From an uncultured Planctomycetia bacterium (GTDB lineage: Bacteria; Omnitrophota; Gorgyraeia; Duberdicusellales; 4484-171), in the NCBI GenBank assembly GCA_964483625.1, contig CAZABB010000003.1, forward strand, positions 21,895-85,894: a stretch of DNA of 64,000 nucleotides. The letters are read 5' to 3'. The notes under the pieces are model-generated. The model ran no database searches. It was not told the DNA's origin and was given only the letters and a program-made list of their open reading frames with translations. The stretch's first letter is position 1; every line of letters starts with the position of its first letter. Below are positions 27 to 36,100 of the stretch, one piece after another. A program made the translations under genes and the position numbers.

Positions 27-176
27 TTGGCGATAATAGGATTTATACTGGTGTTTTTTATTTCGGGGGGGATGATCTTTTTCTCAGGCCAAACCGGTAG
101 TCCTTACTTTTCTCTCCAGGGGATGGCGGGAGTATCTCTGGTGTGCTTTCTCGGTATGGTGGCTATATCTTCTCCG
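27..176 (+). other. N-terminal hydrophobic region of two predicted TM helices. Possible membrane anchor or signal anchor
   Basis: Translation reads AIIGFILVFFISGGMIFF ... GVSLVCFLGMVAISS. Confidence 0.5.
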
Positions 177-3100: not shown

Positions 3101-6100
3101 AAGAAATATGCTTGAGGCGGGGAAACTGCCGATTATCGTTACCGATAAAGATTATTCGTTGATCGAGGTGGTCATTGATCGCCATATGTGCCAGTTGCTT
3201 TTGGCGTTTTTTGAATTAGTGTGGGATCGTTTCGGCATTTCTCTGCCATTCATCATTCTTACCAATAATACGAAATCAAATACCATGAAAACGGTGTGGA
3301 AGATTCTGATGGAAGAATTCGAGCAGAGATATCATCATCTGTCTGAAAGCGGGAAACGGAGAAAAAAACGTGAATTATTCGGCAACTTCATCATTAATTC
3401 CTGCGGCGGGCAAGTCTGGGTATGGGATGAAGCGGCAGACAGTGAGGAATTCCGGTTCATTGAAGAGCTGACGATGGAAGACGAAGTCGTTGCCGTCGTC
3501 CGGGAGGGATTTGATTGTCTCATCACCGAATATACCGATACTACCCGGTATGCTCCCGGGGAATGCATGCCGGTTCATCCTTACGGTGAAAGGATAGATC
3601 TTCGTCCCGGCGTTTCCGGCGACATGATCGGGATGACTCTTAAAATTCCCGGCCGGGATATTCCCAAAGATGAAAAGCGGCAATTCGATCCCGATAAGAC
3701 AAAACGGCAGATATGGAAAAAAGCGCTTTGGAGCATTTTAAAAGAACTCTGTCATGGGCTTGAACCGGATCTTGCGGAAAAGGTGAAAAGTCTCACCATA
3801 GAGATCGGCGGGACAACTTCAATCGACGTGACGGTGGGAGATAAGCGCCGGCGGATACAGCAGGTCATACGGCAGCTCGCTGTCCGTATGGAACTTCCGG
3901 AGGACGAAATAAAGAAAAGAATATTGTATTTCGGTGATGAATTCGATGTTGACGGCGGGGATTTTACCTTAATAGGACTGGTAGCGTTACTGGTGAATTT
4001 AGGGAGGACAAAGGTCGTTGCCGCCGAAGCGGTACGTGCCGGCCACATCTTCGTCAATCCCGAAAGCGACGAGCTTATCGGTCCGGAGCGGATGCGTGAA
4101 TATCTGAAGGCATTGATGGTACTTATTAACGTATTGCTTTCTCCCGATATATCTCCCGACGCTCTTCGGGAAAACATCGGGGAAGCAGTCCAGCCCGAAA
4201 ACTGGCATCTAAGCTCGTCCGTGGAAGTGGGGGCGCTCATCGAGCGGTATTTTATGCTCGATGCCGATATGTGGGAGTTAATACAGGATGTCGCTCGGCA
4301 GGGAGAGGATATTACAAGATTTATTGAAGCATTATATCAGTGTGAAGATTATGACGATATTGTCGCAGAAATATTACGGTCATTTTTCGCCCGGGAGCCT
4401 GAAGATGCCGCTCCCGACCATGATATCTTCATCGGTTTTGTCCGCGCCGATATCGCGTATCAGCCGACAGAACAGCGAGTTCTCCATGCAATTGAGTGGC
4501 AAGCGACGCTGAATGAATGGATAGGACGTTCGGATGATATAAGGGAATATATTAATATGTATCAGGTATTGAGAGATATGTTTGATGATTTTCTTCATGT
4601 ATCTTATTCGGAAAACGAATCTGGTATGAGAAATATCCCCGGACAAGGTGTTATCTCCGAGGACGGCCTCTCTTCCGTGGCTGCAGGTGCCCTCACCTTT
4701 GTCTGGGGTGTCTTTATGCCGCATGCGGCCGGGCCGAATTACCCACCAATCACGGGAGAAAACGAAAGCGCAGTGATTATCCTTGTCGTATCGGGATTGA
4801 TCCTTGCCGGTTGGATAGCTCTGGTATTGTTCCGGCAGGAGATATTGTTTTACAGTATCCGGAAACAGGCGCCGCCGTTGACGATACGGATAGTGATCCG
4901 GGTACTTTTCCCGCTTGGTTCTTTCCCTCAATGCGTGCTTGTCGTCGGTCCCAGCGGTGTAGGGAAAGACAAATTAACCGGATCATTATTTTCCCGCTAT
5001 CCGTCTCAGTTCACCCTGCTTCGGTTGACAACGACGCGCCGGCCCCGCCCTCAGGAAACGGATAATCCTTCAATGAAGAAGAACTATATGAGCCCGGAGA
5101 AATTTTCGGCTATGGTTAAACAGAACGCGTTTCTCATGAGCTGGGGTAACTATACCCATGCCTATGGATTGGAAGAACGGGAACTAAAACGATGTATCGA
5201 AGCGAGAAAGACCGTCATCATCCATACCGCGTCTCCCAAGGGAGTAAGACGCTGGAAAAAAGCTCTGCCTCAGGCAAAAGTCGTCCTTGTCTCGCCGGTT
5301 CCTATGGTATCCAGCCCGCTCCGTCCCGAGGAAAGAGATCAGGTAAAAGCGGTTCTCAGGCACAGGATGAGACAGAGAGAGGCTTTGATGCAGGCTGTGT
5401 TTGAGGTTAGGTTAGAGAAAGGAATAAAGCTCCTGGACGCGTTTCGTCGGGGAGAACTTGATTATGACGTGTGTGTCACGAATGGAAAAAATTCCGGTCT
5501 AGAAAGAGTCCAGCATGAATTTTGCCGGACGATTATCTCTGAAATTCAACCTCAGCGTTATGCGGGGCCGTTGATGGTAGGGGTTGCGTTAGGGATCGTT
5601 GTGATGGGATTGGCGAGCCCGGCCGGTTTTTCCGCGACCTTGGAGTTCTTTCTCCTAATGATCTTCCTGGGGATGATGTCCCCGGTCCGCGGCGAAGAGG
5701 ATCAGCCGTCTCCCGCTCAGAAAAAAGTCGTTCTTTTATTGGAGGAACATTCAGTGACTGGCGGTGCTATTTCGGAAATACCTTTAGATGATTCGATGAT
5801 ATTACGGGATAAGGTGGGAGTAATTGCCTTAAGAGAGCGGGTGGCTCGGGAAAATATCCGGCAAACGACCGGGCGGGGAGTGCGGGCGCTTGAGGGTGTT
5901 CTGAGAAGACCTGACGGGGGAAGCAAGGTCGAATCGATTGCCGCAGAGATAGCTCAGGCATTGACCGAATCCTTTATCTGGCTGGCGCAGGCTCCGGTTG
6001 AAGAAGTGATTCAACGGTTGGACTGGGTTCCCGTCTCTCTCGAACGGATAAGGAATATTGTTCAGGGTGATTCTGTTATCCAGATCGTGGGAGGAGTGGT

Positions 6101-9100
6101 AGAACCGTTGAATTTTTCCCGTCTCTTATGCGAAACAATGAATAGACAGGCCGGGAGATCTTTATCATATACGCTTTCTCCTTACCCCCGGACCGAAAAT
6201 CTCATTGGTCTGGCTCGGGGATTAGGTAAGACAGGTTTGCTTCGGGAGATAGCTGCAGCTTACCCTGAAGCGGAGACTATTCGCGTCCCGGTAATTGACG
6301 TGGGACGGGCTTTTATTAAGGTGGGATATGCCGAGTTTCGCCCCAGCGGCGTGTTGCTGCGGTTGGATTTAATCAGCAGTGTGGAGAACCGGTATATCGA
6401 TACTCGGATGCCGGAGAGAGGATATGAATTTAGCCTCAATACTCTCCTGAATACTCTTTTCCGGTGGGCGCAAGATCAGAAGGAATCAAAAAATCTCCAG
6501 CTGAGGCAAAAAGAGATTATTGTCAGTCCTTATCAGGGAATAGCGGTTTCTACTTCTATCCCGGAATATGTCCCGATTATTGAAAAGGAATATTTCATGT
6601 CGGAACGGTGTTCAGAAGGAGCATTTTTATTTCTAACCGATAATGTGCTTACCCAGACATGGGCAGCCACCCGGGAAAATACGTTGATCCTTACTCTAGG
6701 CGTTGAACAGTCTCTGGTATTGTCCCGTGAAGATCCTGAACTTTTCCCTTTAGCCAAAGCATTTGAAGTCGTTGATTGGATACGGGTGAATGAATGTATT
6801 ACTCTGATTCAAAACATGGGGTTGCTGGAGGAACCTCCCCTGGTGATGGTATCCCGCTACTGGGATCTTTACCGGAGATATCCATTGACGTTTCAGGAAG
6901 CAAAACGAATGCTGTCCACGCCGGCCGGCGTAAACCGTAATTATGAAATATGGAGCTGGCGTTCCGATCTTCATCCTCAGAAGACGTTACCTTCTCCCAG
7001 TGTGAGCATGATTTTCTGGCAGACATTGCTTACGTCCTGGCTGGAGCGTATTTATCCCCAGATACAGGAATTTGAAGACAGGTACGGTACGATATTCAGT
7101 AACCAGTTCGAACCGGGAGAGAATATGACCGGATATCTTACGCAGTTGCTCATCGGCGTTATGGTAGACTTGAAAGTCCGCTGTCCCGATCTGCTGAGAG
7201 ACTGGGGGGAGACATACGGGGATCATGAATTAAAGCACGCCTTTATGGTCATCCGTCAGGCTTTGGATTTTACCCTCAAACAGATAGCATATCAGCAGAG
7301 TACCGTCCCGGAAGATATTGCGGTGATTGCCAGAGAGCAGGCCGATGTGCGGGCGATTATCGCCGGTTCCCTCATCCATGACCTGGGACAATTGTACGGG
7401 GAGCCTCATGAGTGGGTCGGGGCCCGGCTGGCCAGAAGAGTTTTTATCTATTTAGGTATGCACCGCCGGGCGACAATCTATGAAAATATGACCCTGTTAC
7501 AGCTTGTCATGATGATTATTCTCAAACATTCTTCTTCCAGTAAGGTGCCTCCCGCATGGGATGATCCGCTGGAAGTGCGTATCGTCCATGCCGCCGATGA
7601 TTTTCAGCAGACGGTTGAACGTATTCATATTGTCAATAAGCGGAGAAACCGCTCTTTCTTCAAACGGGCCCGTACCACCCTGGCGCGGGTCGCGTTCATC
7701 GCGCTCCGTTCCGGTTCCTACAATGATATGAAAGACGGGCAGGGAGATGTGGATACGTTTACCACTCTCCTGAAAGCCCTGCTCATTATCACCGATCCCC
7801 AGGCGTATTATCTGGAAGTAGCGCGGCAGGAAGCGACGACTACGCTCCAGAGGAGATTCCTCAATGACTTCTGGGATCTTATTCAGCGGGAAGTCTCTCC
7901 GTGGGAATTGCCTTCGGTGATTGCGGCGGCAGAGGACTTTTTCCGCATCTGGGCTCAGTGGCGGGCCATGCCGGAGGTTATATACGCCCGAAAAGAAAAA
8001 TGGACAGCCGAGAGTCTTAAGAGCGTATTGAACGAATTAGGATGGTGGGATAAGATTGAGCCCCGTCTGAAAAGATCCGTTCCATCGCGATCCTATCCGG
8101 TCGAGAAAATCATCCCCGCGGTGATAGAAGAATACGGTCCGGCCCGGCTTTCCGAAACGGACGTTTCTGCCGACTCCTATGTGGCCGGCATATTATCGGA
8201 TTGGCGGGATATCGTCAGTGACACCGTGCCGCCGCAAAATCTTCCGATGGGATGCATGCTGTTCCTCTTGTCTCCGATAATACTTCCCCCGGACGGAGAG
8301 ATCCTTGTCAGAACAGATTGGATGTCTCTTGTCGTGCTATGCGTCGTATGTTTTTTGATTGTCTGGTGTGTCCGTCGCTCGCTGCGGCAAGATTGGATAC
8401 ATATGATGCTAGTGTTGGGAGGAGTATCGGTCGTTTGTTTAACTTACGCCGAAGCCTACGGGCCTTTTATGTGTTTGTTCCTGGGAGCAGTCCATATGGG
8501 ATCCGAGAAACGCGATGTATCCTCGACCGACGGCCGTATTGTTCTTGAACCGATCAATCTGGGAACGGTACGTCAGCACAGAGATCATATTCATTCCGAT
8601 CTCCTTTGGTTTGTCCTGCCCGATTTTCTCGAGCACGGGATATTGGATGGGTGTCGTCGTCTTATCGTTGAAGAAAGTGATAACTGTATTGAGGTCAAGA
8701 TAAAAAACCGTGATTTGATTTTGAGATTACCTTCCCGGAGGTTGCCGGAAGATGCTCTGCGGCGGGCTCTGAAGCTTTTCTTTGTTCAGCGTGAATACGT
8801 GGGGGCCGACGGAGATTCTTTGATGGTCGATATGAGAACACGCAGTGAGCTGGATGAACGTTACCGGCAGGCGTATGAGCAGAGAAACGAACGGGTAATC
8901 GACGCTTTCTTATGTGATCCCCGGCCGGTGAAAGCGGTCAATATGCTCACGCGTGATGGAATGTTTATTCGTAATCATCAGGAACTCTTTCCTTATATGG
9001 CCCTTCTGGCGGTACAGTATCAATATCAGTGTATTAACCACGACTATACTATCGAAGCGGATGAGTACGGGACGGAGCTTCCCGAAGCGATCGTAGATGA

Positions 9101-12100
9101 AGTGTATATAAATTATCCCGGCCGGGAAGACGCTGCGTTTGAAATGGTACGTGAAGCCGCAAGAATATTAAAAGATAGAGGCGTGCTTACCATAGTCTCC
9201 GGACAGATAAATTTACGTCTTGTCGAAGAAGAACTGAACGATATGGGGTTTTTCGGCTGTGAGATAACCCACGTCCAGGAAGAATATCCCCGTACCGGCT
9301 ACCAGGATGACGGATATCGGTATATGCTTCGGGCGGTGAGGAGACGAATGGATGAAACCAGAGGAGAAGATGGGAGGATTTCTCTGGCTGGAGCATATAG
9401 AGAAGCCGTGGCGATGATGGAAAGAGCGGCGCAATTCATCGGCGGCAAAGGCATTATCGTCACCTTGCAGTTTATCGAGAATTACATGCGGATATGGGCA
9501 CGTGATGGCATTTTCATCCTCCTGGCGGCGTTGATTTCCGGAAATTCAACGCTTATCGCCGCCGCCCGGCATATACTGACGACGTTACGCGACCATCAGA
9601 TAAAGACCGAAGCGCAGTTCGAAACAGTGTTCGACCGGGGCCGTATCGATGAGTTCGGCATTAAGCGGCAAATGGAAAGGATCAATCCCATAGGGATGAT
9701 CCCCAGCAACGTCGCTCGCAACGGACATACCAGTTACGGTATGCCGGAGATCGGCATTTTACGCGCCGATCCCACCCTTCTCTATATCGTCGGTTCTGCC
9801 ACGTATTATCGTTTTTCTCAGGCGAGGGAATTTTTAGATGAACATTGGGAATCAATACGGCTTGCCATGCAGTTTCTCGAAAACCAGTTCGGCCGTGAGG
9901 GGAAAGAATTGCTCTATACCAACCGGGCGGCGGATTGGGCCGATGCGTTTATCCAGAAAGGGAATGTGTTGTATATCAACACGTTATGGTATAAAGCGCT
10001 GATTGATTTTGCTTACCTCCATGGCCGATTGGGTAATAGCCGGGAGGCAGAGCGATATGGAGGGAAAGCACAGCGAGTCAAAGCGGAAATACAAAAAGAG
10101 CTGTGGATATATCGGGATGGAGACGACTATCAGGGGGGTCCCTTTTCGATATACGCGACGATGGGGGTGCCGTTGCCCAAGAAATTCGGATATTTCGCCC
10201 ATTTCCGCGATCCCGATCTTGATGACCAGTTAAGCCAGAAATATTACGGCGGATGTGATGTCATGGGGAACCTGCTGGCGGTCCTCTTCGGGATTGCCGA
10301 TACCGGACAGGCAGGACAGATTGTGGATTTCATCATATCGATTTCTGATAACCGCTATCCCCTGGCTCCGGCTCATTATCCCTTTGTCCGAGCCGAGGAC
10401 CTGAAAAAATTACTCCTGGCGAGGTTTAATTTCCGCGAGGAGGAAGGAGAGTATCATAATGGCGGTTTGTGGACGGTGATTACCGCTCTCCTTGTCGCAG
10501 TCCTGGCCCGTGTGGGATATGCCGCACGGGTTAAGGGAGATCCTGAGCAATCCGAGAAATATTTTCGTCTTGCCGGACAGTTTTTATCGGGCATCAAGGA
10601 CGCCAATCAGAGAGAGGGAGATACGGGATACCGTTATTATGAATGTCATCGCAACGATCCGGAAAAAGAAAACAGGCCGCAGGGGACCTATGACTTCATT
10701 CCCAGCGCCGCCGCGTTTGTCATCGCCTCTCATCAGTACGTATGCTGTTTGCGTCAGGTCGGCCGGATGCCGTCCAATAAAGAACTGGAGGATTTGACGG
10801 AGAGAGTAAGTGTTCCCGACAATTCTGTGTCGAAAACATACGGGGAAGAATTATTACCGAAGGAGCACGTATTTTCGTGCGTTCTCTTCATCCTCTTGAG
10901 CGTATTCCTGATGGGGCAGGGGGCAGTCGACGGGACGCATCTTTCTTATCTGGCCGCGTTTTCGGATGTTTTCGCGGCCGGTTCCTTTTTCTTCGTCTTT
11001 CTACTCGGAGCATGTACGGAAAGAGATGATGATACGGGAAGAATTCTGAGGCAGATGAACCGTTTGAAGCGCAATCTCGAAACCATTGCGCCGGATGAGC
11101 GGGAGGAAATCTTACGGAGCTTCCGGACGTATCTTTATTCATTACGTGAGAATCTTACCGCTTATGATATCAAACTTGAACGGCATGTAACCATTGATGC
11201 CGTCATTGGCGGGATCAGGGCCGATGTCGGGAACGCGGTGAGGGACAGCAGGTTCGTACGTAAATTCAAAGACGAATTGACCGATATCGTGGACGATACC
11301 GACCGGGTTGTCGCCGTCACCCCGGCAGGTTTCGTGCATATGTTCGGATTGCGCCATCGAAGTGTCAATGCGTTTGTCATGAGTCCGGCCGGTGACGTAG
11401 TATTGCAGCGCCGGGTACATAATAAAGCCGAAGCGAAACGCCTCTCGATTTTCGGAGGGCATGTCGCGGCCGGGCAGAGCTATAGGGAGGCGATAGAACG
11501 CGAATTGCTGGAAGAGCTCGGTCTGGACACGATCGGAAAGGTTCTGGGCGGCACATTGATTCTTCTCGGTGAAGAAGGACAGTTCCGCAACGACGCCCCG
11601 GCGAACAACGAGTTCCGGTCGCTCTATGTGTATATTTTGACCGGGCGAGAATATGAGCAGGTACGGTGGATGCGGGGCGATATCAACGAAAAGAAGAGTC
11701 AATATACCGAAGAAGAATTCCCCGACTGGATCGAAGTACAACAGAAGAAAAGAGAAGGGTATGGCGAAGTCTGGGGATACCATTTCGCGTCTTTAGAATC
11801 AGTCTTTGCCGGCTCAGGCCTCTCGGTCGAAGAAACGTATTCCGACGGCACGCTTACCGAAACGGTCGATTATACCCACGATCTTCTTCTTCCGCTCGTG
11901 CGGGGGAACGCTCCTTTGCGGGATGACGGGCGGGGATTTGATCTGCGAAAGGAAATTGAAAACGTTTTGCCCGATATTCCGGGAGTGTCATTCTTCGCCG
12001 GGCTTATCCCCGTGCTTTTTCTCGGAACGGGTTACTTTGCCGGTATGTCCGATATCCTTTCATCCCTTCCTTTTTTCTCATTTATGGACCTGCCGGTGTC

Positions 12101-15100
12101 CGGCATGTTTCTGTCTCTGATCTTCTCATGCCTGTCGATTCCTTTTCTCCTGGCCGTCATGGCCCCCTACGATGATACCGTGGTGTGTCGTTTGGCTGGG
12201 AAAGTGTTCGACCGTACATTTACTTCCGCAAAGGAAGCAATGAATGAACTACAAAAAGCACTGCGCAGCAATGATGTCGACCTTTTTATGTCGGCCGCCT
12301 CGGCTCTGAAACGAATAATTGAACAAAGTAGTAATCCCTGGAAATTATTCGTTTCCTGCCGTGTTCACGGAAGTGCTTTCGAGAAAAATATTGCCCGGTA
12401 TGCCGTGGAGAGATTGATTTCTGCCGCTCAAGAAAACCTCAATTCTTTCTCTACCCGGCTGAACCGGATGCGGGCATTTTTGAATAACGTAGGGATCGTC
12501 ATATTTATGAGTTTTACACAGGAAGGTGATTTTGTTTTGGGGTGGGAACAATTCAGGGATTATTTTCTCGAAAAAATTCCACATTTCACGTGTGATGATG
12601 AGTTGCCTGAAGAGCTGGAATTTCCCGCCGGACCGGAAAAGCTTGATGTGAGCGCCGTACCGGTCTACGAATCGCCTGAGGAAATTTTCCGGGCACGGGG
12701 AATAACGCACAACGAGTATGTGACGACGTTGGGAAGAAAATGGATAGGACGGGATTCCGCCGCTCCCGATGCCTGGGAATATCTGGTACTGAAGATGCTC
12801 CAGAAAGGTGAGCAACCGGAGATTTTGGTCCGGGAGGGGAACAACTTTATTTTTCTGAATAAGGCGCGAACGTTTTTAAAATTAAAACAACAATGGGCCC
12901 GTCCGCTTTCAGCTCAGAAAAGAGGAGAAGCGTCGGATTACAATGAAGACTTTGTCTGTAAAGTGAAGATAGATGAAGACCGGCTCTCCAGCCAAAGCCC
13001 TCTGGTATCCCTCAAAGATCCTTCGGTACAACAATACGATGGATACTGCCTGGTCCTGGTATGCCGGGAACGGTTAGAAACGTTGAGCTGGCTGGACCGG
13101 GCCGAAGACATCGAAGGGAAAGAAATAACCGAGCGGCGCTTCATGAAAGGAATTTTCCTCGCCGTTCATGATTTATTTGTCCTGTTGCGGTACAGAATCG
13201 TTCATCCTGACCTGGCTGAATTGTTTCACGACGAACGCATTCCTTCTCCCGGAAGCACGGTTTCTGTAGGACAAAATCGTGATGACGGCGGAATCTATCG
13301 CTGGCCCGATTGGGGAAGGTTGGGAGCCTGGAAAAGGAGCGTGACATATTCCAACCTCCGCCTTTCCGGTTTCTCCGATGCGGCAAATATGTATTTCATC
13401 CGCTCGCTAAAGAAAGATCAACCTCTGACGGATCATTTCGCGAAATGTGGATTAGACGGTGATGCTTCTTTAGGGGAGTGGTTTTACCGTATTGCCGGGA
13501 GGTATCTTCTGGTCGTGGCCCTGGTTATTGCCTGCTGGCGCATTGAACGGGAGAAGTTCCACCGCCAGGATGAGCCGGCATTATCCGGACAGCTCCGGAG
13601 GGTATTCGCTTATGCCGTTGCCGTACATACCGGTGTCAGGGGAAAAGAGGGAGGTGTTGTTGATAGTGTATGTTCACTTCTTGACTGGGACCGTCTGGCG
13701 CGGCAGATGCTCTATTTTATGGACGGGGCGTATACGGCCGATTTTCTCAGTGAAGAAGCATCTCATCAAATAAGGAGGAAAAAGATCTATGCGCATACTC
13801 AGGGGGTTTTTATCCCGTCTCCGGAAAAGCTCATCGAAGAATCCCTTGGCTGGGATCTCCAACGGAAAGATCGTAGTATTTTTGATGAAAAGATCGGATG
13901 GAGCATGGTTTCCGGATATGCTGATTTAGGTGCGCCGAATGGGAAGAATCCTCTTCTGCAATTGCATAAAGCTCTTACCTTGATTGCTCTGTTCATGGTG
14001 GCTTCGCGGGGTATCATTGTCGCTCAGGAGGACCGCATTTCCGTTGAATCCGCTCGTGAAGAATATGTATTGGGTTCCTGGATGTTTCCTTTGGTGCTTC
14101 TGGCGGTATGTTTCGGAGTACATATCGATTTTTCCGGAGATATCCTGGTCGGTACCTGTACGTTTTGTACCGGTGTGATATTGATACCTGCGATACTGGG
14201 AGTGATGACCGTAAGAAGCGATGAAGTAACGTATGTTGAAACGGTTTTGGCCGAATTGGATGAACTTGACCGTTTCCGTCCGGGACATGCGGCGCGGATC
14301 ATAAGCCTCTTAGAGGAGATCAGAAGTTTTGAACAGCGTGCGTGGCGTTCCTTTCAGACAGAACATATCGTACTGATTTTTGAATCGTTACATTCATTGC
14401 AGCGGACCCTTCCTTTGCAGGAGGGGGTAAGAGAAATCAGTCCTTTGCGTGAAGCGATTCACGAACATATTGAGGACAGTATTGAGCACTGTGCGTTTTC
14501 CATGCTCAAGGAGTTAACGCGGCATCCCGTGATCCTTAAGCATTTTATCTCATCGTTCGGAGAGAATCTGATCCCCTTGATTGTATTTGCCGAGGACAGG
14601 GAAGCGCTCAAATTTCTCAGTGAGCTTCCTCAGATATCATATGAGTTGCAACGATCTCAAGTCGAGCGGAATCCTCATTTGGTGGTGAAAGATTCCGAAC
14701 TGTTCTCTGCCTGGGAATATTTAGCGTTACACGGGCTTACGTTCGATGCCCTGCTTGTAGGAGTCACCAAGCTGAGTGTGAGTGTGAACCAGGCCCCTCG
14801 GGAAAAAAGCATATATAGTAAGCTTGTACATTCCAGCCGGACATTAAACTGCCCCCATATCCATCCCGACAACTTGTCCGGCGCAATCCATGCTCTTTTA
14901 CCTTTATATTTCGGTGAATATCTCGAACCAGCGTTGTCTTTTGTTGCCGAGGCCCGTAATGCGGCGGGATCAGAGACAGTGCGGCCGGAGGTGTTAAGAT
15001 CTCTGTTCTATGATAGATTTCTCACTACGAGAAAAATTGTCGTTCGTCTGAGTGAAAATTACGGCGAAACCCTGCATGATTTTTATCGTCTTACCCGCTG

Positions 15101-27100: not shown

Positions 27101-30100
27101 TGCTCAGCGGACCAGAAACGTCGTTCATATGGGGGCAGGCGTGCTGCCGCCGGAAAACCGGTACGCGCCGCTTTCCCGAAAAGAAATCCGAAAAATTGTT
27201 GCGGCTTCTTTAGAAATACTCGAAACCGTGGGGATGGAGGTCCCCGGAGATTCTCTGGGGATCTGGGAAAAAGCGGGTGCGAGAATCGATATCGATCGTA
27301 ATCGTGTCTACCTGCCGGTATCTCTTGTATTATCGGCGCTTACTTCTGCGCCCTCGCGGGTGGTTCTGTATTCACGGACAGCTGAAAATGAGGGGGTAAT
27401 TGTTGATGAGAATCATACGTCTTTCGGGAGCGGCGGCCAAGCGGTAAAAGTGGTGAAAGAAGAAGGGGGGGTACGGGAAAGTACCCTGGAGGATATTTTC
27501 CATATCGGCCGGATTGTCGACGAGCTTGAACAGATTCATTTCTATCTGCGGCCGGTAGAGGCGCAGGATGTTCCCGAAGCCGAACGTGATTTGAATGCCT
27601 ATTACGCCTGCTTAGCCGCGACGCAGAAACATGTGATGGGAGCTTGTTCTTCGGCGGAGAGCGTAAGACAGGTGGTGGAATTGGCTTCTTATATTGCCGG
27701 GGACAAGGAAGTGTTACGTGAGCGTCCCTTTATTTCGTTCACTACTTGTTGTGTCGAACACCCGCTTAAATTCAATCCCTATGTACTGGACATACTAAGG
27801 GAAATTATTGCCGCAGAACTCCCGGTCGTACTTTCTGCCGCACCCCAGCCGGGGGTGACCGCTCCCATCACATTGGCGGCGACTCTGGCTCAGGTGTATG
27901 CGGAGTTGTTCGGATCTCTTACGTATGTACATCTGCTTCGTCCCGGCCATCCGGCGTTGATTGGCGCGACCTTATTTACCAGCGATATCAGGAGCATGGG
28001 AACATGTGCCGGGTCAATTGAAGCCGCGGTATTGAACGCCGGTGCCGTGCAAATCGCCAATTATTTGAAATTACCGCTTTACACTACGGCGGGGGTTACT
28101 GAAAGTAAGCTTCCCGATGATGCTCAGGCGGCAATGGAATCGGAATCGACGCGGACGCTGGTAAGTCTCGCGGGAGGAAGTTTGGTCCATCATGCGGCCG
28201 GTATGCTTGAGACATTGCTTACCGTAGCCCCCATAAAGTATGTGCTTGATAACGAAGGAATTGCACGCATAGTACGTCTGACGCGGGGGGTTAGTGTTAA
28301 CGATGAAACACTGGCGTTGCCGGTGATCGCCGAAGCCGCCGAAGCCGGCGATACATTTGTCTTTATGGCCGGAGACCACACTCAGTCTTATATGCGCACC
28401 GAGCTTGATCTGCCCGGCCCGGCTATTGATCGAAATGCTCGTGAACAATGGAGTGCCGCGGGAGGATCAAGTGCGGGACAACGGGCGGACGAATGCCTTC
28501 AGGGAATGGAGCTTCAACCAGAGGGAACGTATATACCTGATGAGGTCGATCGCTTATTACGCGAGCGATTCGATATCCGGCTGCCGCGAAATCCTGTGTC
28601 CCCTGTTTCTGAAGCTGCAGAGGCAGCAGATCATTATATTACCTCTGCCGCGATGTATGCGGCGGCGGGAGAATATCCGCGGTATGCCCGGCAGTTCAAC
28701 CAGACGGGGGATATGCTCAATGTGCTTGAGGAATATCTGATTGAATCCGGCAAAGTGACCGGACCGCCGTGCGTCGCCGAACGTAAAGATGGCAGGGTTA
28801 TCTGGCATCTGAATGTATTTCAAATTATCAATATATTACGCCGTCAGTATCGTCTTATTTCTATCCTTTCTCTGCTTATTCAGATTTTTATCCATGAATC
28901 CCGGCCGAATGAAGAAAAAGCCATCCGTGCCCAGATACAATATTACACGTTCCTTGCCCGCCTCTCTACCCTTCCGCCACTCCGGGAGTGGAGGTCGGGT
29001 GTGGTGAGAAGCCGGCCGGATCGGTTCGACTTGGCGCCTTCTCCGGTCGGTAACGTTGAAGTACATCCGACCAACCGCTGTAACCTGCTGTGCCAAGGGT
29101 GCACGTATATCGCGTGCGATCGCCGGGAGACGTTGTCTTTCGGCGCTTTAGATTCTCTGGCGCAATTGTATCCGTCAGCAATACTTATCGTCGGGGGAGG
29201 AGAACCGACCTTATACCGGGACGGGGATAAGAGATTCAATGAGTTCGTACTGCGTGTCAGAGAACTTCTTCCCGATGCGCATATCAGCCTTACAACGAAC
29301 GGGATTTTTATTCCGCCCGGTACATGGCAGGATCATGTCGGTTTTATAGGTATATCTTTGCACGGAAGTTCTCAGAGAGAGTATGAGGATTTTACCCGTA
29401 CAAAGAAAAAGGATTGTTTCGAAACGGTATGGCGGAATATTTTTGAACGGTATCTGCGGGACAGTCCGATTCCCACCGTGGTCGTGTCGTACGTCTACTC
29501 GCGGGATAATTATGAGAATATCCTGCCGTTGACGAGAAAGTTGTGGCAGGCCTGGGAGGAAGTGGAAGCTCAGCTGCGGGTCCGGGGAAGAGAAAAAGAA
29601 TTTCGTTTTGTCTTGCAGCCTTACGCCGATGATACGCTTCCCGCCGATCCCTATGCATATGCCAATCTTACCGGCCCCCAGAAAGAAGCGTACCGCAGGA
29701 GGCTGGAATCCATAGAGAAGGACGAACCTCTCTTCTGGGAATTCATCAAAAAGCACGCTTCACATGTGCGCACATATCCGTTGAAGGAACATAAAGCTCC
29801 CGGAGTGAATTCCTGCTGGATGGTCGCCGATTATGTATTGTTGGGCGCCGACGGCATTTTTTATCCCTGTTGTGTTATGGCCGCGGCGGCGCGCGCGTGT
29901 AATCTCGGCCCCGTGGAAGATGGCATTGATATGCTCCGGGAAGAACGCCAGCGTCTCATGGAATCCGTTCCTCCGCGCTGCCGGCAGGGATGCCGTCTTG
30001 TCGGTACGTATATGGGGAAAAAGGTGCGTGCCCATTTACGGAAATATTCAGAAGAACAAAGTCCGGGTAGCATGTATAATCTGGGGGTAACGGGATTGTT

Positions 30101-33100
30101 ATTAGGTTTGAGCGTAACGAATCTTGGTATGCCGCCGGCCGGCGTTATTGTTCCCGGCAGCGGCGCCCCTTCATCCGCCGGCTATGTAATCCCTCTGGTT
30201 GCGTTTCTCCTTGTGGCCGGTCTCATTGCGCTGGACTTTCTGATCTTTGAATATGAAAAGATACGGTCATTTATCCGCACGGTTACGGTGAGGGTGAAAA
30301 GGAATATCGTCGTCGGGACGGGGATTGTATTACTTATCTTCATGTTCGGGATTACCGGATGTACAGGGGACTCCGGACGTACCGATCCCGTTCCTTCACC
30401 GTCTTCGCCGGCCGTTGTCGGGGTGTCAAAGACGAAGGAGTTGAATGCGATGTTTCTCGTCGTCGACCAGGAAAGTGCTTACGCGATGCATCGGGTCGTG
30501 GGAGGGAATTGTGAAGACGACTGGGTTTCTACCTGGCTTACGTTTCAATGGGAGGTATTTCAGCGTTCGATACGGGAACAGTACGGTGTGGCACTTATTC
30601 TGCGCGATGTTGCCTGGCCTCCCTGTAAAAAAGTCAACGTTACCCTGGCTCAATTCCCCGGCGGCGTTCATATCGGCGGTGATATCCCGGAAGTGCGGGA
30701 AGTTATTGCCCGGGAACATCTGCCGGTTGATACGGTTATTCTTACCGTCGAGGATCTTGAGTGTCCCTACGGTTTAAATGCCACAGAGATTCAGCGCTGC
30801 TCCATGAGAGAGAACGGCAGGGAGATTGAGGTGAATCAATGGTGGCAAGAGGAACTGATCGAGCAGGGCGTTCTGGAAGAGATATCCGGTGAATCTTCAC
30901 TCATACCTTTACAGGATGATACTCCGCCGGTACTGCGCTCCTCTGTTCTTTCCGGATATCCGTTATTTGTTGAGAACACGCAGTGGCTTTTCGGGTGTTC
31001 TCTTCTCAATGTGTTTATTGGTTTGTCCCTCCGTATCCGTTCTTTTTTTAGAAATAAAATCCCCGGGCAAGTACTCTCCACCTTGGGGGAGGCCTCTTCC
31101 GTGACTGTAGGCGCCCTCCTTGCCCGGGATGTATTTAAAAAGTATCATTGCTCCGCCGCCGCGTTTTTGCTGTTTTTCCATTCTTTCCAAAGTATGGCAG
31201 GAGACGGCAGACAGGCGATCGGTCTGGCGCTCATTGGCTTTATGTGTCTGATCGGATTGTGGATTACCGTGGAGACGGTTTTGTTCGCCCGGAAATGGAT
31301 CTATACGATTAATCCGCAACAGATGCTGGAGAAACAGTTCATCGGAAAAGTTTCTCTGCGTGATTTTATCCGGTATGCCGCGCCGGTAGTGCTGATAGAC
31401 GTGATGAGTAAACTATCCGTCGTTTTTCTCACCGATATCCCCCGGACGGCCGGCGATACGGTGACCGCATCAACACCCCATATTGCCCTGGGAGAGTCTC
31501 TCTGGTGTGCCAATTTCCGTTTAGACGCGGAAAACTGGATGGGGATATCTGTAGGAAACATTCCCTGGGTTATCTTCGCGGGATTTTTTGCGCTGGCGTT
31601 GGGGTATCTTCTTATGATGTTCCGTTTCCATCGTTCCCGGAAGTTGAGGAACGTCTCCGAAGTCGGTTTGATAGTTATTTCTTTTCTGCGTATGCTTCTG
31701 TTTGTCATGGCCGGAACAGGTATTGCCACAGCCATCTCCCTTCAATGGACGATCCTTCCGACCGACTGGATCGTCTTTAATACGCTCGATGGCCCCATTC
31801 CTACTAATTTCGCTGATATAATCGGATTGTTCACCGTGGCGGTATGGCTTCTGATGTGGATAACTCTTATGACCATGGAGTCGATGGATCGAACGCGGTC
31901 AGGTGAGGGAGGAATATGCCGTCTCGTAAGCGGATGTCCCGTTTGTTCACCGCAAGAGGATTTCCCGCCGGGATTTTTTTACGATGAAATATCCTGGGAC
32001 GAAGAAGGTCAGGTTGAGGTTGATAACGTACTGTGTGATTTATCCCGGCGTCAGGCGGAAGAAGGGTTTGGTTTTCCTCATTACTGGGATCAATTGCTGA
32101 CCGTAGGTGAGATGTGCGAGGGAACAACGGACGTGAGTTTGAGAGAGCGGTATCGTCAGGCATTACGGGAAGAGGCCGAAGATGCCAGGATGGTCGAAGT
32201 AAAAGATCTGGATATGTTTAAAGTCATCAAAATACTCTGGCGTCCTCTGCGTCGTTTCGGGTTTCCCGGGACCAGACGGAACGGGCAGGCGGTCAACGAG
32301 GGATGTTTTATCTGTATCCCCAATATGTCCTCGTTACAGAGGGGAGTAAGAGTGGAAGGGGGATTGCCCGTGCCGCTTCGTCAGCCGGATGCGCCGTCAG
32401 GGCCGATTGCATCGGCACATCAAACCGTTTTGTTTCGCAAAGATGGTTTGATGTTAAGTCAGCTCGATAGGCCGTGGCCCAACGTTGTCTATGTTGCTCA
32501 AGGGGATATTCGGGATATCGCACGGTTTATCATGTTCATGAGAGAAGGTTTACGAAATAAGTTTCCCGCTGAGAGTCAAAGGAGAGGGTTTAACATTCTC
32601 TTTACCCGTGATCAGAACAGGGAGGTAAAAGTATTCTTCATCCCCCGGCGGAAATTAAAGCCGTCGGGATTCGGAAATGAGTTCGCCGCGTTTGAGATGT
32701 GCGGAATCATTGTACTGCATCGTACCGGGGATTTTATCCAAATGCAGGAAGAACATATTTATAACGCATTGGCGGAATGCGGGTATCCTCAGGATGAAGA
32801 CGGCCGCATGCGCGAGGTGTTTGATGATGCGGTAGCCGCTTTATCCGAAAGAGAGAGCGATGAAGAGGATTCCTGCGACACTGATTTTGCCGCTCTCTGC
32901 AATCCTTTTGCCATCGTGCCCCATCATATCACACTGGCTTCTTTATCCCACATTCCGCAGGAGCTCACGTTTTCTTGTCTTCTGTTTATTCTTCATCTTA
33001 CCGGGCATTGCCGCGATTTCCGTTTCTGTTTTAATTCTATCGACGGCGGAGCTTCGATCGAGAAACATCTGCATTTTCAGGGGACAGACCTGCCGTTTCC

Positions 33101-36100
33101 CGTCGAAAACGGGAGAAATGAAGCGATCGATGCTGCGCTGGCGTCAGCATCTTCGGATACCCCGGTCATGTACGGATTCGTCTTCTTCGGTCTTTATGGG
33201 TTTTTCAGCGGTACGCTTACTTTTCTTTTAAACGTTCAGACACTCACTAATATCCTTAATTTAACGGCGATTGTGTTGTTGATCTTTTTTATGGTTCATA
33301 CGTTGAGACGGGGAGGTATTGATTCCGATTATCGTTCTGCTTTCCTGGGGGCGCGTGGGATTTCGGCTTCGTTGTCTTCAAAGATACGTCCCGGAGAAAC
33401 GGCTCAATTGCAGGGGGCCGGTATCCTTACGGTCCATGTCACCATACGAGCTCTTATTTACCCGGTGGCTCTTTTTTACATCAATAAATGTGATATTTCT
33501 CCTCCGGGAGAATTCTCTCCCTTCTCTGTGTACATACTTATCCTGCGTAATGCCGTTGTTGTCCTGGCGTTGTTTATCTACGTTTATGTTGCCAATCGTA
33601 CCCGGCCGGAGGAGAGGATATTTGTCGACCGGGGCTACGACTTCGATACGTATAGCCACCCTTTCATTAAAGGCTTTGTGAAGATCGCTTCTCTTTATCC
33701 CCGTGCTACTGTCGGTCTGTTGGGAATCCTTGATCAGACGTTACAGACCGGATTGGCGTTTGTGGCAGTATTGACCCTTACGCCGGGAGAACTCACCCTG
33801 ATTCTTTTTTCTGCCTTTGTGCCGACAAAGATCCTGGCGCACTATGTCCTCGGTGAACAATTGACGTTAAGAAAAGTCGGCGGCGGTATTCTGGCGTTTG
33901 CCGGCCTGTTTATCTTTACCGTAGGGTTTGGTTTTGATTTGAACGTTCTGGAAATTGGGACATTGCTGGGTCTTATTTCGATGTCTTTGATCGCCGTGCG
34001 TAATATCCTGTATAAACCCATAGCCAATATGTATTCCAGTCCCTGGCTGACCTATATGCAGTTTCTTGCCGGTACCGTACTCCTGGGGGCGACACTGGCA
34101 TTTTTCCCTCCATTTACTCACGCTCAGAGCAGTCACATCTTTTCTCACTTTACTGATCTTCTGGCCGGCGTGATGTTAAGTGCCGGCATCATTGTTATTG
34201 CTTATATCACCAATCTGCTCGCTTTGCGTACCCTTAAGAGTTCTACCGTATCCATGGCACAAGTTGCCATACCGGTCTGTGCCGCGTTCTGGCAGCTGGT
34301 ATTACTTTCGATTCCTCTTACCCTGATTAAATTTCTCGGGATGCTTATTGTTATTATGGGGAATCTTATGAGTGGGATGAAAGGAAGTATCAGACGGTTG
34401 ATCAAGGATGCAGGTACACGTGTTCTTTCCCGGCGGGCGCGGAATTCGGTACATATGTGTGTTGATGTGTTCGTTTTTATACCGGTCTTTCTAGGGGGAA
34501 ACCCTTTTTCCGGCCCATTTTTTCATTTAATCGTCGGTATTTTTGTTTTTTGGTGTATAATAATCATAGGGGATTTTTCAACTCATTCTTCTTCCAAGAA
34601 CATATCTCGGTCCAGACAAGTATTCCCCGCATTGAGGGTGACCTCTTCCGTGGCTGCAGGTGCCCTCCTTGTCTGGGCCGTGTTTTCTCTTTCCTTATCC
34701 GGCCCTCCTTTCCCGGCAGATTTTCTCCTGTTACAATCTATTCCGTTGATTGGTATGCTGGGAGGAATCCATCATGTTATTCCGTCCCGTCCCGAAGATC
34801 TAAAGAAAGAGGATGTCCTTGAGCTGATAAGAGGTGATGGAGAGCGGGAACGGTTTACTCTCTGTATGGATCCTGTTGTGCCTCCGGGGCAGGAATATTT
34901 TACCAAGGCACGCATCGAACATGGCGAATATGTTTCGTTGACCTTTCCGGCTTCTTCCGCCGAAGTGGCGCTTGTTGAGAATGTCAATGCCGAAGGATTG
35001 ATTCATGGGGAAGGACTTACCGACGCCGCAGAAACATTCGTTTTAGTCTGCGATTGGATCGAAACCATACCCGGAGACGCCGAGTCAGGCTTAAAATTCG
35101 GGGAGTTGATCGGCCGCCGGGTAGAGGCACCGGAATACGCTCTGGCGAAATTTATTGTCCTTGTCCAGCGCATGGGTGCCTTGCATGAGCAGGGTGTGTT
35201 TATGAGAGAGGGATTTGGCTACGAGGACATCCTTGCCGATCGGTACGGAGATCCGGTTATATACAATGTAGAGTCGGTGGTAAAAACAGCTTTTTTCCCG
35301 GGAGACAAAGGCGGGAAGGAGTATGTTGCCTCTGACATCGCCGTGTTGGGCGACATGTTGACGTTGATCTCTCATAAACCGATATTACAGCATCCTGTCC
35401 TGACGCAATCGCGCCGGGAAATAGAACGCATCGCGTCCTATACCCGCTCCGGTACGTATGGCGATACGGTAATATTCATAAGTGACCTTCAATCGGCTTT
35501 GAAGACTCTTCAGGAAGCCCGGCTTGTATATGAATACGGCGACCAATGTGTTTCGGGCCTCATTCTGGATATCGATGGAACATGCGCGACGGATACCGGA
35601 AAGGTGTATCTTCCTGTGATGAAAGAGGTGGCGGCCTGTATGCAACAGGAAGTAGTCAGCCTCTTTGCCACGGGCAGACGGTTCCTCAACTGCCCATTCC
35701 TTAGAATTGTCCGGCAATTTCCGCAGGAAATGCGTACAAAAGCACGCTGGTCTTTAGGGAACGGCATGTTATATTTCGGACAGATTGAGGATGCCTACGT
35801 GGCCAGAGAGCAAGGTGAGATTGAAGCGGGACAGGAGTGGATATTTGCCAGCCACGATTACAGGTACCCGGATGAGGAAATGGAACGGCTGGAGGAAGTG
35901 GTGGGCCGGATGTTGGAGGATGTCCCTCAGCCGTGGTTTACGTGGTTCTGGTTGCCTGATGATGTCCATCCCTGGCGGTTTGCCGCAGATCTGCGTACGG
36001 CTCTTGCTGTTGCTGCGGTCACCGGTACGGTACATGTTTGCTCCTATCGGCGTGATCAGAGAACAGCGGGTATAAAGACGCAAGAAGATCCCCCGCTGTC

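Follow-up and report, generated by a model that had tools for sequence, protein, structure and literature searches.

The locus considered here, a stretch of 64,000 nucleotides (the window), raises the question of what kind of element recurs within its single giant gene, whether the copied unit is the nucleic acid or the peptide that it encodes, and how the copies came to be there. The sequence-only reading had described three copies of an 85-nt unit encoding a signal-peptide-like segment. All three are where it placed them, in the frame of the giant ORF, but the tally was incomplete: a fourth copy (E) was added by a covariance model (CM) and a fifth (D) at the protein level.

Five copies within one giant gene

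The element is present as four intact hairpin copies (A, B, C and E) and one decayed copy (D), all in a single gene, on one strand and in the same reading frame. The boundaries were taken from the CM matches, whose spans give a unit of ~85-95 nt. The features are the following, in order along the window.

Giant ORF: 3..54515, plus strand, at least 18,170 codons, hosting every copy of the element
Copy D (decayed): ~4164..4247, plus strand, matched by regular expression and profile at the protein level only; peptide RENIGEAVQPENWHLSSSVEVGAL at amino acids 1378-1407, LRENIGEAVQPENWHLSSSVEVGALIER at 1380-1407
Copy A: 4626..4721, plus strand, CM scores 91.6 and 68.7 bits; 5' arm 4637-4648 (CCCCGGACAAGG), core 4670-4694, 3' arm 4696-4708 (CCTTTGTCTGGGG); in-frame GTG at 4677; RNA fold -33 kcal/mol, z = -2.2 to -3.1
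Copy B: 31050..31142, plus strand, CM scores 107.5 and 89.2 bits; 5' arm 31062-31071 (CCCGGGCAAG), core 31095-31118, 3' arm 31119-31128 (CTTGCCCGGG); in-frame GTG at 31101; fold -33.6 kcal/mol, z = -2.0
Copy C: 34596..34691, plus strand, CM scores 97.1 and 100.6 bits; 5' arm 34608-34620 (CGGTCCAGACAAG), core 34643-34667, 3' arm 34668-34680 (CTTGTCTGGGCCG); in-frame GTG at 34650; fold -35.1 kcal/mol, z = -3.5
Copy E: 52524..52610, plus strand, found by CM R1, which had not been given this copy (14.8 bits, E = 0.07); 5' arm 52527-52540 (TTCCGGTCCGGGCA), 3' arm 52589-52602 (TGCCTGGGCCGGAA); in-frame GTG at 52569; fold -38.1 kcal/mol, z = -3.9, with 0/200 shuffles equally stable

The cores of A and C are indeed identical, over 25 nt rather than the 23 first reported (4670-4694 and 34643-34667, 25/25 by self-BLAST with word size 11). 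In the 64-kb window no direct repeat is longer than this match, which ties for first place, and we estimate its chance expectation at ~2e-6. Copies B and C match at 27/30 nt across 31093-31122. With up to six mismatches, the core pattern occurs in the window at the A, B and C sites only, and nowhere on the minus strand. The likenesses between copies are mosaic: A resembles B in the 5' block and C in the core, and C resembles E in the arms and in CCCCGCA. Outside the arms, flank identity is random (~0.25) beyond ~15 nt, and no target-site duplication is visible in the flanks.

In the encoded peptide of 28-30 amino acids the first half is polar and the second hydrophobic, the latter opening a transmembrane (TM) helix, and all four intact copies sit at inter-domain TM-linker positions. 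The motif reported from the sequence, (R/K)N..., then 13-15 residues, then SSVxxGAL, was recovered. The hydrophobic run said to follow it is found in A, C and E; B (LLARDVFKKYH) and D (IERYFMLDAD) continue otherwise. An in-frame ATG does open copy A at 4626; it has no Shine-Dalgarno (SD) sequence, its anti-SD energy of -3.5 kcal/mol being at the 46th percentile of in-frame start-like codons.

Conservation exceeds what the amino acids need, as the sequence-only reading had proposed. The same codon is used for the same residue at 17/23 positions between A and C, 11/13 between A and B, and 10/12 between B and C (74-85%), against a baseline of 38% from 43%-identical MttB paralogues (binomial p ~5e-4 to 2e-3), which places the conservation at the nucleotide level. 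Codons that are not identical between copies differ by 2.1 nt on average, i.e., they are saturated, and the eight same codons for SSVAAGAL have a chance of ~1e-5 under the codon usage of this gene. This excess of synonymous identity is consistent with the recent copying, gene conversion or mobile mini-cassette that had been suggested. Copy D is different, its codons having diverged from A, B and C at synonymous sites. Compared with B it retains SSVxVGAL through four synonymous changes and one replacement, and this argues for purifying selection on the peptide, which is thus no pure passenger.

A common hairpin under the coding sequence

Each intact copy has complementary ends, a feature absent from the sequence-only reading, and A, B, C and E all fold into one common sense-strand hairpin. 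A G+C-rich outer stem of 10-14 bp encloses a loop of 47-50 nt with the conserved core UCUUCCGUGGCUGCAGGUGCCCUC and a small inner stem, GAGG(G)/(C)CCUC. Copy B has a perfect 10-bp inverted repeat with 47 nt between the arms; copy C has a 13-nt inverted repeat that is 92% complementary, again with 47 nt between the arms, and the inner stem GAGGGU/GCCCUC. In copy E the stem is perfect, with the inner stem GAGAGG/CCUCUC; its 48-nt loop has diverged apart from a retained CCGTGGCT, and the SSVxxGAL peptide is lost.

A number of observations bear on the structure. First, the 13 pairs of the outer helix are paired in 46/46 cells of the four-sequence alignment, with A-U to G-C double changes at two pairs and wobble-only variation at two more, and the inner helix has double changes at three pairs; 1/500 column shuffles matched the observed pairing or covariation, statistics that are weak because there are four sequences and the structure was derived from these same sequences. 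Second, shifting the partner by 1-3 columns leaves only 24-61% pairing. Third, non-Watson-Crick pairs are all G·U on the plus strand, with no A·C, and the sense fold is more stable than the antisense one by 2.4-8.9 kcal/mol in 4/4 copies. Fourth, the intact copies have fold z-scores of -2.0 to -3.9 and minimum free energies within about the top 0.1-1% of the ORF's 81-nt windows, copy E being the sixth most stable among 6046. Finally, the residues encoded by the arms vary between copies (PGQ/SRQ/SGH vs FVWG/LARD/LVWA/FAWA), yet the bases pair, so that protein constraint fails to explain the arms. Copy D has neither hairpin nor SD-like run (fold z = -0.28) and was missed by both CMs.

Candidate explanations

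Tentatively, we favour the view that the element is an in-frame "coding palindrome" akin to the Rickettsia palindromic elements (RPEs), spread by copy-paste or gene conversion. RPEs, the 'protein-coding palindromes' of Ogata et al. 2000/2002 in the summary of PMC10969869, are in-frame insertions that code for conserved peptides. By description, not by sequence, the likeness is that of short, dispersed, hairpin-capable repeats that lie in frame, leave the ORF unbroken, encode a conserved peptide and are found at differing degrees of decay. The differences are that RPEs are longer (~100-150 bp vs ~85-95 nt), occur in many unrelated genes, intergenic DNA and RNA genes, whereas the five copies seen here are in one giant gene, and are hosted by Alphaproteobacteria, whereas this host is Omnitrophota-like and has its four intact copies at TM-linker positions. 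If the element is of this kind, the copied and conserved unit would be the nucleic-acid hairpin, and the peptide a passenger that was tolerated and may by now be partly used. We infer that it spread by mobility or gene conversion, most likely by transposition of a small non-autonomous element or by ectopic conversion between copies; the 25-nt identity of A and C and the mosaic likenesses would then reflect recent copying or homogenisation, and D would be an old copy whose hairpin decayed.

Against a spreading repeat stands the small number of copies, only five, all in one gene, strand and reading phase. Most other phases of the element are stop-free, so a single phase would arise by random insertion with a probability of ~1e-3, unless the peptides of the other phases are not tolerated by the protein. 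Furthermore, the perfect stem of E around a diverged loop could equally fit selection for an RNA function.

MITEs, REPINs and PATEs are hairpin elements that are not autonomous and rely on IS or HUH/Y1 transposases for their movement. The element resembles them in its complementary terminal arms (10-14 bp), its small size, its strand-specific single-strand hairpin and the mosaic relationships of the family, and a parallel is offered by the sole transposase gene of the window, Y1_Tnp (IS200-like), 5 kb downstream of the giant gene. Unlike them, it has no target-site duplication, and all its copies are coding and in one phase. No partner transposase was identified in the window, the hairpins around the Y1 gene (TAACTATACA...AGGTGACACCT...TGTATAGTTA) being unrelated to the element in sequence and base composition. 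Searches further afield returned no other copy: CM R2 had no further match in the window and none in 1.38 Mb of other bacterial loci (control DNA); the core pattern had 0 matches in GTDB representative genomes, 0 in viral contigs and 1, attributable to chance, in JGI metagenomes; and protein searches with the element-bearing regions gave one match, to the DUF4922 module, and none to the elements.

The main rival, which we consider rather unlikely, is a functional cis-acting mRNA structure, namely a structured internal ribosome-loading site. A candidate SD-like purine run would be sequestered in the inner stem and an in-frame GUG-GCU exposed in the apical loop, until a translating ribosome melted the stem and let a new 30S subunit load. 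The distal part of the 54-kb mRNA would thereby stay ribosome-covered or, alternatively, nested C-terminal products beginning with a hydrophobic helix would be made. SD-sequestering initiation regions and translational coupling are known from phage MS2-type systems, and in-frame internal starts from IF2 alpha/beta and CheA L/S. The element shares with such systems an SD-like run in a stem, a GUG in a loop and opening by an upstream ribosome; it differs in that the candidate 'start' is embedded in an ORF of at least 54 kb whose frame it shares, and in that there are four homologous copies of the site. CC-GUG-GCU (ACU in B) lies in the loop of 4/4 hairpin copies with the GUG in frame, and the purine runs upstream (GAGGA, GGGGGAGG, GAGGGUGA, AGGAGAGGA) form anti-SD duplexes of -8.0, -11.3, -6.9 and -8.0 kcal/mol, which ranks them in the top 0.7-11% among 1173 in-frame start-like codons, compared with -1.5 for decayed copy D; the true genes of the window use AAGGAGG at -10 to -12. 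Only the sense strand has the structure's specificity, and in E compensatory changes preserve the two stems while the peptide has diverged. However, the conserved CCCUC requires these purines as pairing partners, and their likeness to an SD may therefore just follow from the inner stem; the spacing in A is 13-14 nt, and 3/4 runs fall short of the strength of the window's real SDs. No regular spacing separates the sites (4.7, 31.1, 34.6 and 52.6 kb), and D conserves the peptide without the RNA features. Stable hairpins are not general in other inter-TM loops, by a scan that is a weak test, its windows having missed the known C and E hairpins, and so no general linker mechanism is indicated.

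It is similarly doubtful that the element is only a protein-level linker motif (RN..., SSVxxGAL, then the start of a helix) that was duplicated within the gene, its nucleotide identity arising from recent short-tract gene conversion and its hairpin incidental. Copy D, which keeps the peptide despite synonymous divergence and has no hairpin, fits this, as do the common frame and strand of every copy; the A-C identity is a sharp 25-nt island amid saturated sequence, which is what a conversion tract would look like, and the MttB paralogues share a second nucleotide island. Such a motif leaves unexplained the complementary 5' and 3' ends of 4/4 copies with differing amino acids, the paired changes that preserve complementarity, the G·U-only mismatches, and the stems that E kept while losing SSVxxGAL.

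Less probable still is a role in pausing transcription or translation, or as an intragenic terminator that works conditionally. Here the G+C-rich stem and the U-rich tract behind it would come into play once transcription and translation are uncoupled, or would hold back the ribosome while the preceding helix enters the membrane. There are U-rich tails past the 3' arm (UGUUUUCUCUUU in C, AAUCUUUUUCCUU in E, UGUCUUUAUG in A and AUGUAUUUAAA in B) and an A-rich run upstream of B, and B, C and E lie 0-10 codons behind a hydrophobic helix. But A has no upstream TM helix, loops of 47-50 nt are far beyond those of canonical intrinsic terminators, a scan for terminators across 30-36 kb picked out neither B nor C, and other inter-TM loops show no excess structure in the same scan that missed the C and E hairpins.

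The original proposal, that the copies are relics of signal peptides or of the 5' ends of once independent secreted-protein genes fused into the giant ORF, is largely refuted and retains hardly any probability: a hydrophobic helix after A, C and E, a lipoprotein-signal-like segment elsewhere in the ORF and a standalone homologue of one module (P0001) with an apparent N-terminal signal peptide (by eye) speak for it, but the element is internal, B and D continue into charged sequence, A has acidic residues between the basic residue and the hydrophobic run, neither a cleavage motif nor an AxA-type site is common to the copies, ATG 4626 has no SD, the flanks are unrelated, so that the copies are not 5' ends of homologous genes, and independent signal peptides would share neither a nucleotide hairpin nor identical synonymous codons.

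The host gene

The reading frame is open to the window's first base, with no in-frame stop back to base 3, and the gene is therefore longer than 18,162 codons. It encodes an Omnitrophota-type multi-enzyme, TM-tiled protein, with ~75-100 hydrophobic segments, ~20 TM clusters and Pfam domains for guanylate kinase, NUDIX, GH-like, hexokinase, GATase, GDH, two MttB, radical SAM, DUF4922, EamA, methyltransferase, Fer2/FAD_binding_5 and Helicase_C; HAD is a weak match below Pfam's cut-off. As to the taxon, TrpE matches an Omnitrophota MAG at 60% identity, and DUF4922 matches Ca. Gorgyraea atricola at 44%. The gene fits the class of Omnitrophota giant 'multi-enzyme metabolic cluster' or TM-only long proteins (West-Roberts et al. 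2023, bioRxiv 10.1101/2023.11.21.568195; bioRxiv 10.64898/2026.06.07.730766) in its length (>18,000 aa), many metabolic Pfam domains, dozens of TM helices and Omnitrophota neighbours. Pfam detected no SecA-DEAD, C39 or S8 peptidase domains in it, and hairpins, palindromes, inverted repeats, MITEs and gene conversion in such genes go unmentioned in bioRxiv 10.64898/2026.06.07.730766. The lipoprotein-signal-like segment lies at amino acids ~10090-10112, away from the copies of the element.

A family of hairpin units in one giant gene

The element is real and represents a hitherto undescribed form of the in-frame coding palindrome, carried by a giant gene of Omnitrophota type. It is a discrete hairpin unit of ~85-95 nt, with four intact copies and one decayed copy in a single frame and on a single strand, with conservation at the nucleotide level and with mosaic relationships between copies. 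The giant open reading frame (ORF) that hosts it lies on the plus strand, runs from base 27 (open back to base 3) to 54515, and comprises 18,162 codons plus an upstream part. The copies and their hairpin arms are as follows.

Copy A, 4626-4721, plus strand: intact; arms CCCCGGACAAGG / CCUUUGUCUGGGG
Copy B, 31050-31142, plus strand: intact; arms CCCGGGCAAG / CUUGCCCGGG, perfect, 47 nt apart
Copy C, 34596-34691, plus strand: intact; arms CGGUCCAGACAAG / CUUGUCUGGGCCG, 47 nt apart
Copy D, ~4164-4247, plus strand: decayed, protein-level copy
Copy E, 52524-52610, plus strand: intact; arms UUCCGGUCCGGGCA / UGCCUGGGCCGGAA, 48 nt apart

Copies A, B and C had been described by a sequence-only reading, and self-comparison confirms that they are real, in the ORF frame and on the plus strand. 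The core reported as identical in A and C was recovered by a word-11 self-comparison as a match of 25/25 nt (4670-4694 = 34643-34667), the joint-longest direct repeat in the window, and B matches C at 27/30 nt. With up to six mismatches allowed, the core pattern has only these three sites in the window, all on the plus strand. The peptide of the three copies is also as described: (R/K)N..., 13-15 residues, then SSV(A/T)(A/V)GAL. The claim that conservation acts at the DNA level is borne out by codon usage, since the same residues have the same codons at 17/23 (A-C), 11/13 (A-B) and 10/12 (B-C) positions, for a baseline of 38% in the 43%-identical MttB methyltransferase paralogues of the same gene. 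Under the codon frequencies of the giant gene, the chance that all eight codons of SSVAAGAL agree is ~1e-5, and the A/C identity is therefore not an effect of codon usage. Codons that differ between copies are 2.1 nt apart on average, which amounts to saturation. Together with the excess of codon identity, this indicates that some stretches of the element are maintained at the nucleotide level inside sequence that is otherwise fully diverged.

Two further copies extend the family. Copy D was found with the regular expression SSV..GAL at aa 1397, with R-x-N-I upstream at the right distance; we estimate that ~0.004 such sites are expected by chance in 18,162 residues. It differs from A, B and C by synonymous changes (TCG, GGG, GCG), and its eight-residue core differs from that of B by four synonymous changes and only one replacement; it is therefore an older copy whose peptide was retained. 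D shows purifying selection on the peptide. Copy E was retrieved at 52519-52610 by a covariance model (CM) built from A, B and C alone; it has in common with the other copies the arms, CCCCGCA and CCGTGGCT, and its peptide is largely different (FFRSGHNTVPAGEDPVALNLSFAWAGIF). This model (R1) and one including E (R2), both run with filters off, gave only A, B, C and E in the window, the next match having an E-value of at least 0.14, and R2 had no matches in 1.38 Mb of unrelated bacterial loci. The family comprises four CM-significant copies and one protein-level copy. Its mosaic character is seen in the segments that pairs of copies have in common: AGAAAU..AUCCCCGGRCAAG in A and B, the core in A and C, the arms and CCCCGCA in C and E, and one G-C pair in B and E. 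As regards DISCRETENESS and specificity, similarity between copies is at the random level within ~15 nt beyond the arms. The sequences on either side of the element are unrelated between copies, and self-BLASTP gave only a weak GH-like pair, the MttB pair and the N-terminal repeats; we therefore rejected a larger duplicated module.

Beyond the window, the core pattern occurred neither in GTDB genomes, taken as one per species, nor in viral contigs, and its one match in JGI metagenomes is a chance occurrence in unrelated high-GC intergenic sequence. Rfam at the gathering threshold gave 0 matches across the whole window. Among 5.8 billion proteins no homologues were detected for the A region (aa 1380-1635) or for the E region (aa 16850-17900), and the B-C region (aa 10320-11620) matched only a standalone DUF4922 protein.

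The 5' and 3' ends of each intact copy are complementary and form a hairpin. The MFE folds of all four use this end-pairing stem, with 10-14 bp, energies of -33 to -38 kcal/mol for ~80 nt and z-scores of -2.0 to -3.9 relative to dinucleotide shuffles, and they rank at about the top 0.1-1% among all 81-nt windows of the ORF; D has no fold (z = -0.28). In the four-sequence alignment every cell of the 13-pair outer helix is paired (100%), and the nature of the pair varies at columns 19-79 (G-C in B and E, A-U in A and C), 17-81 (G·U in A and E, G-C in B, A-U in C) and 24-75 (G·U in A, G-C in B and C, A-U in E). The inner helix, which is GAGGGU/GCCCUC in C, GAGAGG/CCUCUC in E, GGGG/CCCU in B and a shifted GAGG/CCUC in A, contributes three more pairs with double changes. 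Column shuffles reached the observed pairing or covariation in 1/500, and sliding of the partner strand abolished pairing, it being understood that these are four sequences from which the structure itself was read and that common ancestry inflates covariation scores. The arms encode different residues (PGQ/SRQ/SGH; FVWG/LARD/LVWA/FAWA) and remain complementary, their mismatches on the plus strand are all G·U and never A·C, and the sense strand is 2.4-8.9 kcal/mol stabler than the antisense in every hairpin copy. The differing residues, the restriction of mismatches to G·U and the sense bias argue for a single-stranded sense structure rather than for protein or duplex-DNA symmetry.

A rule placing a hairpin at every transmembrane (TM) linker was discarded as unsupported: a scan of 37 inter-TM loops showed no extra structure relative to controls, with windows that were poorly centred on the known copies. 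Four other segments of the giant ORF fold very stably (43641-43721, 46485-46565, 28971-29051 and 45657-45737; -38.6 to -44.7 kcal/mol per 81 nt), and no repeat partners of them were detected within the window.

The encoded peptide

The interpretation of the encoded segment as a signal peptide is not supported. All copies are internal, where a signal peptide would require an N-terminal position or demonstrable initiation close upstream. Instead of a basic n-region leading into a hydrophobic h-region, as had been proposed, 13-15 mixed or acidic residues separate R/K-N from the hydrophobic run. The AxA-like cleavage site suggested for A has no counterpart as a shared feature, there being no c-region or cleavage motif (AxA or lipobox) common to the copies. 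The in-frame ATG with which A begins, at 4626, has no Shine-Dalgarno (SD) complementarity (-3.5 kcal/mol), and the other four copies lack an ATG at the matching position; hisI, rpsP, yajC and surA in the window have AAGGAGG at -10 to -12 kcal/mol. The hydrophobic continuation claimed for the element holds in A, C and E, where hydropathy indicates a polar stretch leading into the start of a TM helix, and fails in B and D, which continue into charged sequence. By hydropathy, B, C and E lie 0-10 residues past the preceding helix, and A sits before the two-helix linker that leads into the guanylate-kinase module. Elsewhere in the giant ORF, at aa ~10090-10112 (window ~30290-30365), there is an internal lipoprotein-signal-like segment, KRNIVVGTGIVLLIFMFGITGC followed by TGDSG.

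When a profile built from the five peptides was run against 1.84 billion representative proteins, the only proteins retrieved had RCC1 repeats (P0002-P0023). Their repeat (N..GQLG, 13-14 residues, SSPVQVGAL..W) spaces its sub-motifs like the peptides of A-D, and the pattern common to both is N..GQ, 13-15 residues, SS.V.VGAL..W. Pfam RCC1 (PF00415/PF13540) had no match to the element peptides at E <= 10, in a search where HMMER filters drop most matches above ~0.1, and hhalign aligned element peptide and RCC1 over 14 columns with 33% probability, in a match picked after the fact. Since the profile score is summed over near-identical repeats and the 14-column match is post hoc, we rejected an RCC1-repeat origin as unproven and retain a suggestive resemblance, not a membership.

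Origin and possible roles of the element

The most economical reading of our analysis, which we favour tentatively and at somewhat less than even confidence, is that the element may be a small repeat family akin to the Rickettsia palindromic elements (RPE), tolerated in frame at linker positions. The unit would propagate as a hairpin and spread via transposition or ectopic conversion among copies, and insertions would be tolerated when in frame at such positions. The mini-cassette or gene conversion raised by the sequence-only reading is compatible with the data, and it is the mechanism itself that we infer. RPE are the analogue for in-frame hairpin repeats (PMC10969869), and the element resembles them in being a repeat family with a stable hairpin and an in-frame conserved peptide. 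It has the terminal inverted repeats of a MITE, in the form of complementary 10-14-nt arms at its ends, but differs in that no target-site duplication was seen on inspection of the arm-flanking sequence, where identity between copies is random. It also differs from REP/REPIN-RAYT or IS200/IS605 PATE systems, because the hairpins around the nearby Y1 transposase gene are AT-rich and have no similarity to the element. A number of arguments go against a spreading repeat. First, every copy sits in one and the same phase (phase 0 of the giant ORF), while most of the remaining phases are open. Second, the target-site duplication that is lacking for a MITE counts here as well. Third, the sole nearby transposase has unrelated end hairpins. 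Fourth, the peptide of D shows purifying selection. Two other types of element were rejected by eye: the differences between copies are not adenine-specific, as they would be in DGR-type variable/template repeats, and the RYYYAAC/GTTRRRY boxes of integron attC sites are absent.

The main rival, which we regard as unlikely in its most specific form, takes the element for a functional mRNA structure, namely a masked site of internal initiation that the translating ribosome would open. In its favour, the apical loop of each intact copy contains an in-frame GUG-GCU (GUG-ACU in B; GTG at 4677, 31101, 34650 and 52569), and an SD-like purine run upstream of the GUG is paired in the inner stem. The anti-SD duplexes, of -8.0, -11.3, -6.9 and -8.0 kcal/mol, rank within the top 0.7-11% when 1173 start-like codons of the frame are compared, and D (GTG at 4221) has no purine run and an anti-SD duplex of only -1.5 kcal/mol. 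However, the same purines are required just to pair CCCUC, and the SD-GUG spacing in A is poor. It is rather improbable that the hairpins are structured internal ribosome-loading sites at the membrane linkers of an ORF of at least 54 kb, making it a covert polycistron without stop codons. A passing ribosome would then open the masked SD and let another load. If so, reloading would act against Rho-type polarity and the loss of ribosomes along the 18,000 codons; alternatively, the sites would yield nested membrane-anchored C-terminal products. An internal promoter was also considered and rejected, with a weak -35/-10 match at B only.

About as unlikely as the mRNA structure is a motif that matters only as protein and whose copies were made alike by gene conversion; it accounts for D and for the sharp 25-nt island but leaves the complementary arms and E unexplained. 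The U-rich tails past the 3' arm hint at a role in pausing or termination, which is very unlikely, given that the loops of 47-50 nt are atypical (those of intrinsic terminators have 3-8 nt), that a terminator scan flagged neither B nor C, and that other inter-TM loops lack excess structure in windows poorly centred on the known copies.

A general question is how bacterial genes of 50-400 kb are built, transcribed and translated. Two papers on Omnitrophota giant genes ask whether each protein is produced, or cleaved, as a single unit, and name no signals in the sequence for this (bioRxiv 10.1101/2023.11.21.568195; 10.64898/2026.06.07.730766). A nucleotide-conserved hairpin element recurring at membrane linkers is a concrete handle on this question. 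If it is a spreading coding palindrome, as we tentatively favour, it would represent one way for giant genes to gain linker or transmembrane segments, and would bring a further phylum into the rare RPE phenomenon. As a functional mRNA structure, it would mark internal initiation, pausing or processing sites at four exact coordinates. Its interest is moderate, and would rise if internal initiation proved to be right.

The giant gene and its neighbourhood

The giant gene probably continues upstream of the window, beyond 18,162 codons. Its frame stays open as far back as the start of the window (3-26), and so further copies of the element may sit outside it. The Pfam matches form a mosaic of unrelated enzymes, which includes guanylate kinase, NUDIX, (alpha/alpha)6 glycosidase-like, hexokinase, class-I GATase, Glu/Leu dehydrogenase, two MttB methyltransferases, radical SAM, DUF4922, EamA, SAM methyltransferase, 2Fe-2S with FAD_binding_5, and Helicase_C, with weaker matches under cut-offs to HAD, MoCoBD and PEMT. 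These modules are set apart by ~20 clusters of hydrophobic helices, many of which are two-helix 'hairpin' linkers. This mosaic, the TM clusters and the Omnitrophota relatives assign the host gene to the class of giant TM-tiled multi-enzyme proteins of Omnitrophota, to which it belongs by its length (>10,000 aa), its many enzyme Pfams, its many TM helices and its Omnitrophota genome. The class has already been described (bioRxiv 10.1101/2023.11.21.568195; 10.64898/2026.06.07.730766) and is known; the finding here is the small repeat within the gene.

The N-terminal region (window 195-1870, aa 56-614) contains ~4 tandem repeats of ~150 aa each with 26-29% identity. The DUF4922 protein of Ca. Gorgyraea atricola (P0001) is the sole homologue of the B-C region, and the DUF4922 module (~31950-33100) is permuted relative to it, the P0001 segments running 350-486, 566-717, 494-568 in the giant ORF. 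A recurrent grammar of linkers is suggested by the many two-helix linkers that finish with (F/L)LG, followed by 3-8 residues and then by acidic ones.

The genes 3' of the giant ORF are hisI, trpE, rpsP, yajC, secDF, a Y1 transposase, mfd and a surA-like gene. The closest relative of TrpE (60% identity) is from a Candidatus Omnitrophota MAG in which the order hisI-trpE-rpsP-yajC is kept. This nearest locus has hisF where the window has the end of the giant gene, and thus offers no orthologous giant gene for comparison. The genome is absent from the GTDB representatives and from JGI metagenomes, and the same strain is represented elsewhere only by a ~1.3-kb Logan contig (SRR7048225_558500), whose 1318 nt are 100% identical to window 57061-58378, which places the strain in SRA run SRR7048225, a possible source of the complete genome. 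This contig was the only match to the exact yajC protein, and the exact proteins of secDF, hisI and rpsP had none. The downstream housekeeping genes (54001-64000; GC 0.43-0.48) are more AT-rich than the giant ORF (1-54000; 0.48-0.53). The Y1_Tnp (IS200-like) and HTH ORF (59722-60588) lies between identical 25-nt direct repeats (59695-59719 / 60590-60614), each within a ~40-nt hairpin (TAACTATACA..AGGTGACACCT..TGTATAGTTA). This unit looks like an IS200/IS605-type or RAYT-type element, and its sequence has no relationship to that of the element in the giant gene.

Short stretches of near-identical coding sequence occur elsewhere. A 23/24-nt match links the giant ORF (9641-9664, RIDEFGIK) to secDF (57683-57706, RIDEFGVK), two unrelated genes that use nearly the same codons for eight residues. 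The two MttB modules (aa 7321-7838 and 9031-9529; 43% identical) have in common a 35-nt island with 91% identity (23485-23519 / 28558-28592), which encodes the C-terminal RERFDIRLPRN with 8/11 codons identical, the rare CGA among them, and is a second instance of local synonymous conservation in the giant gene.
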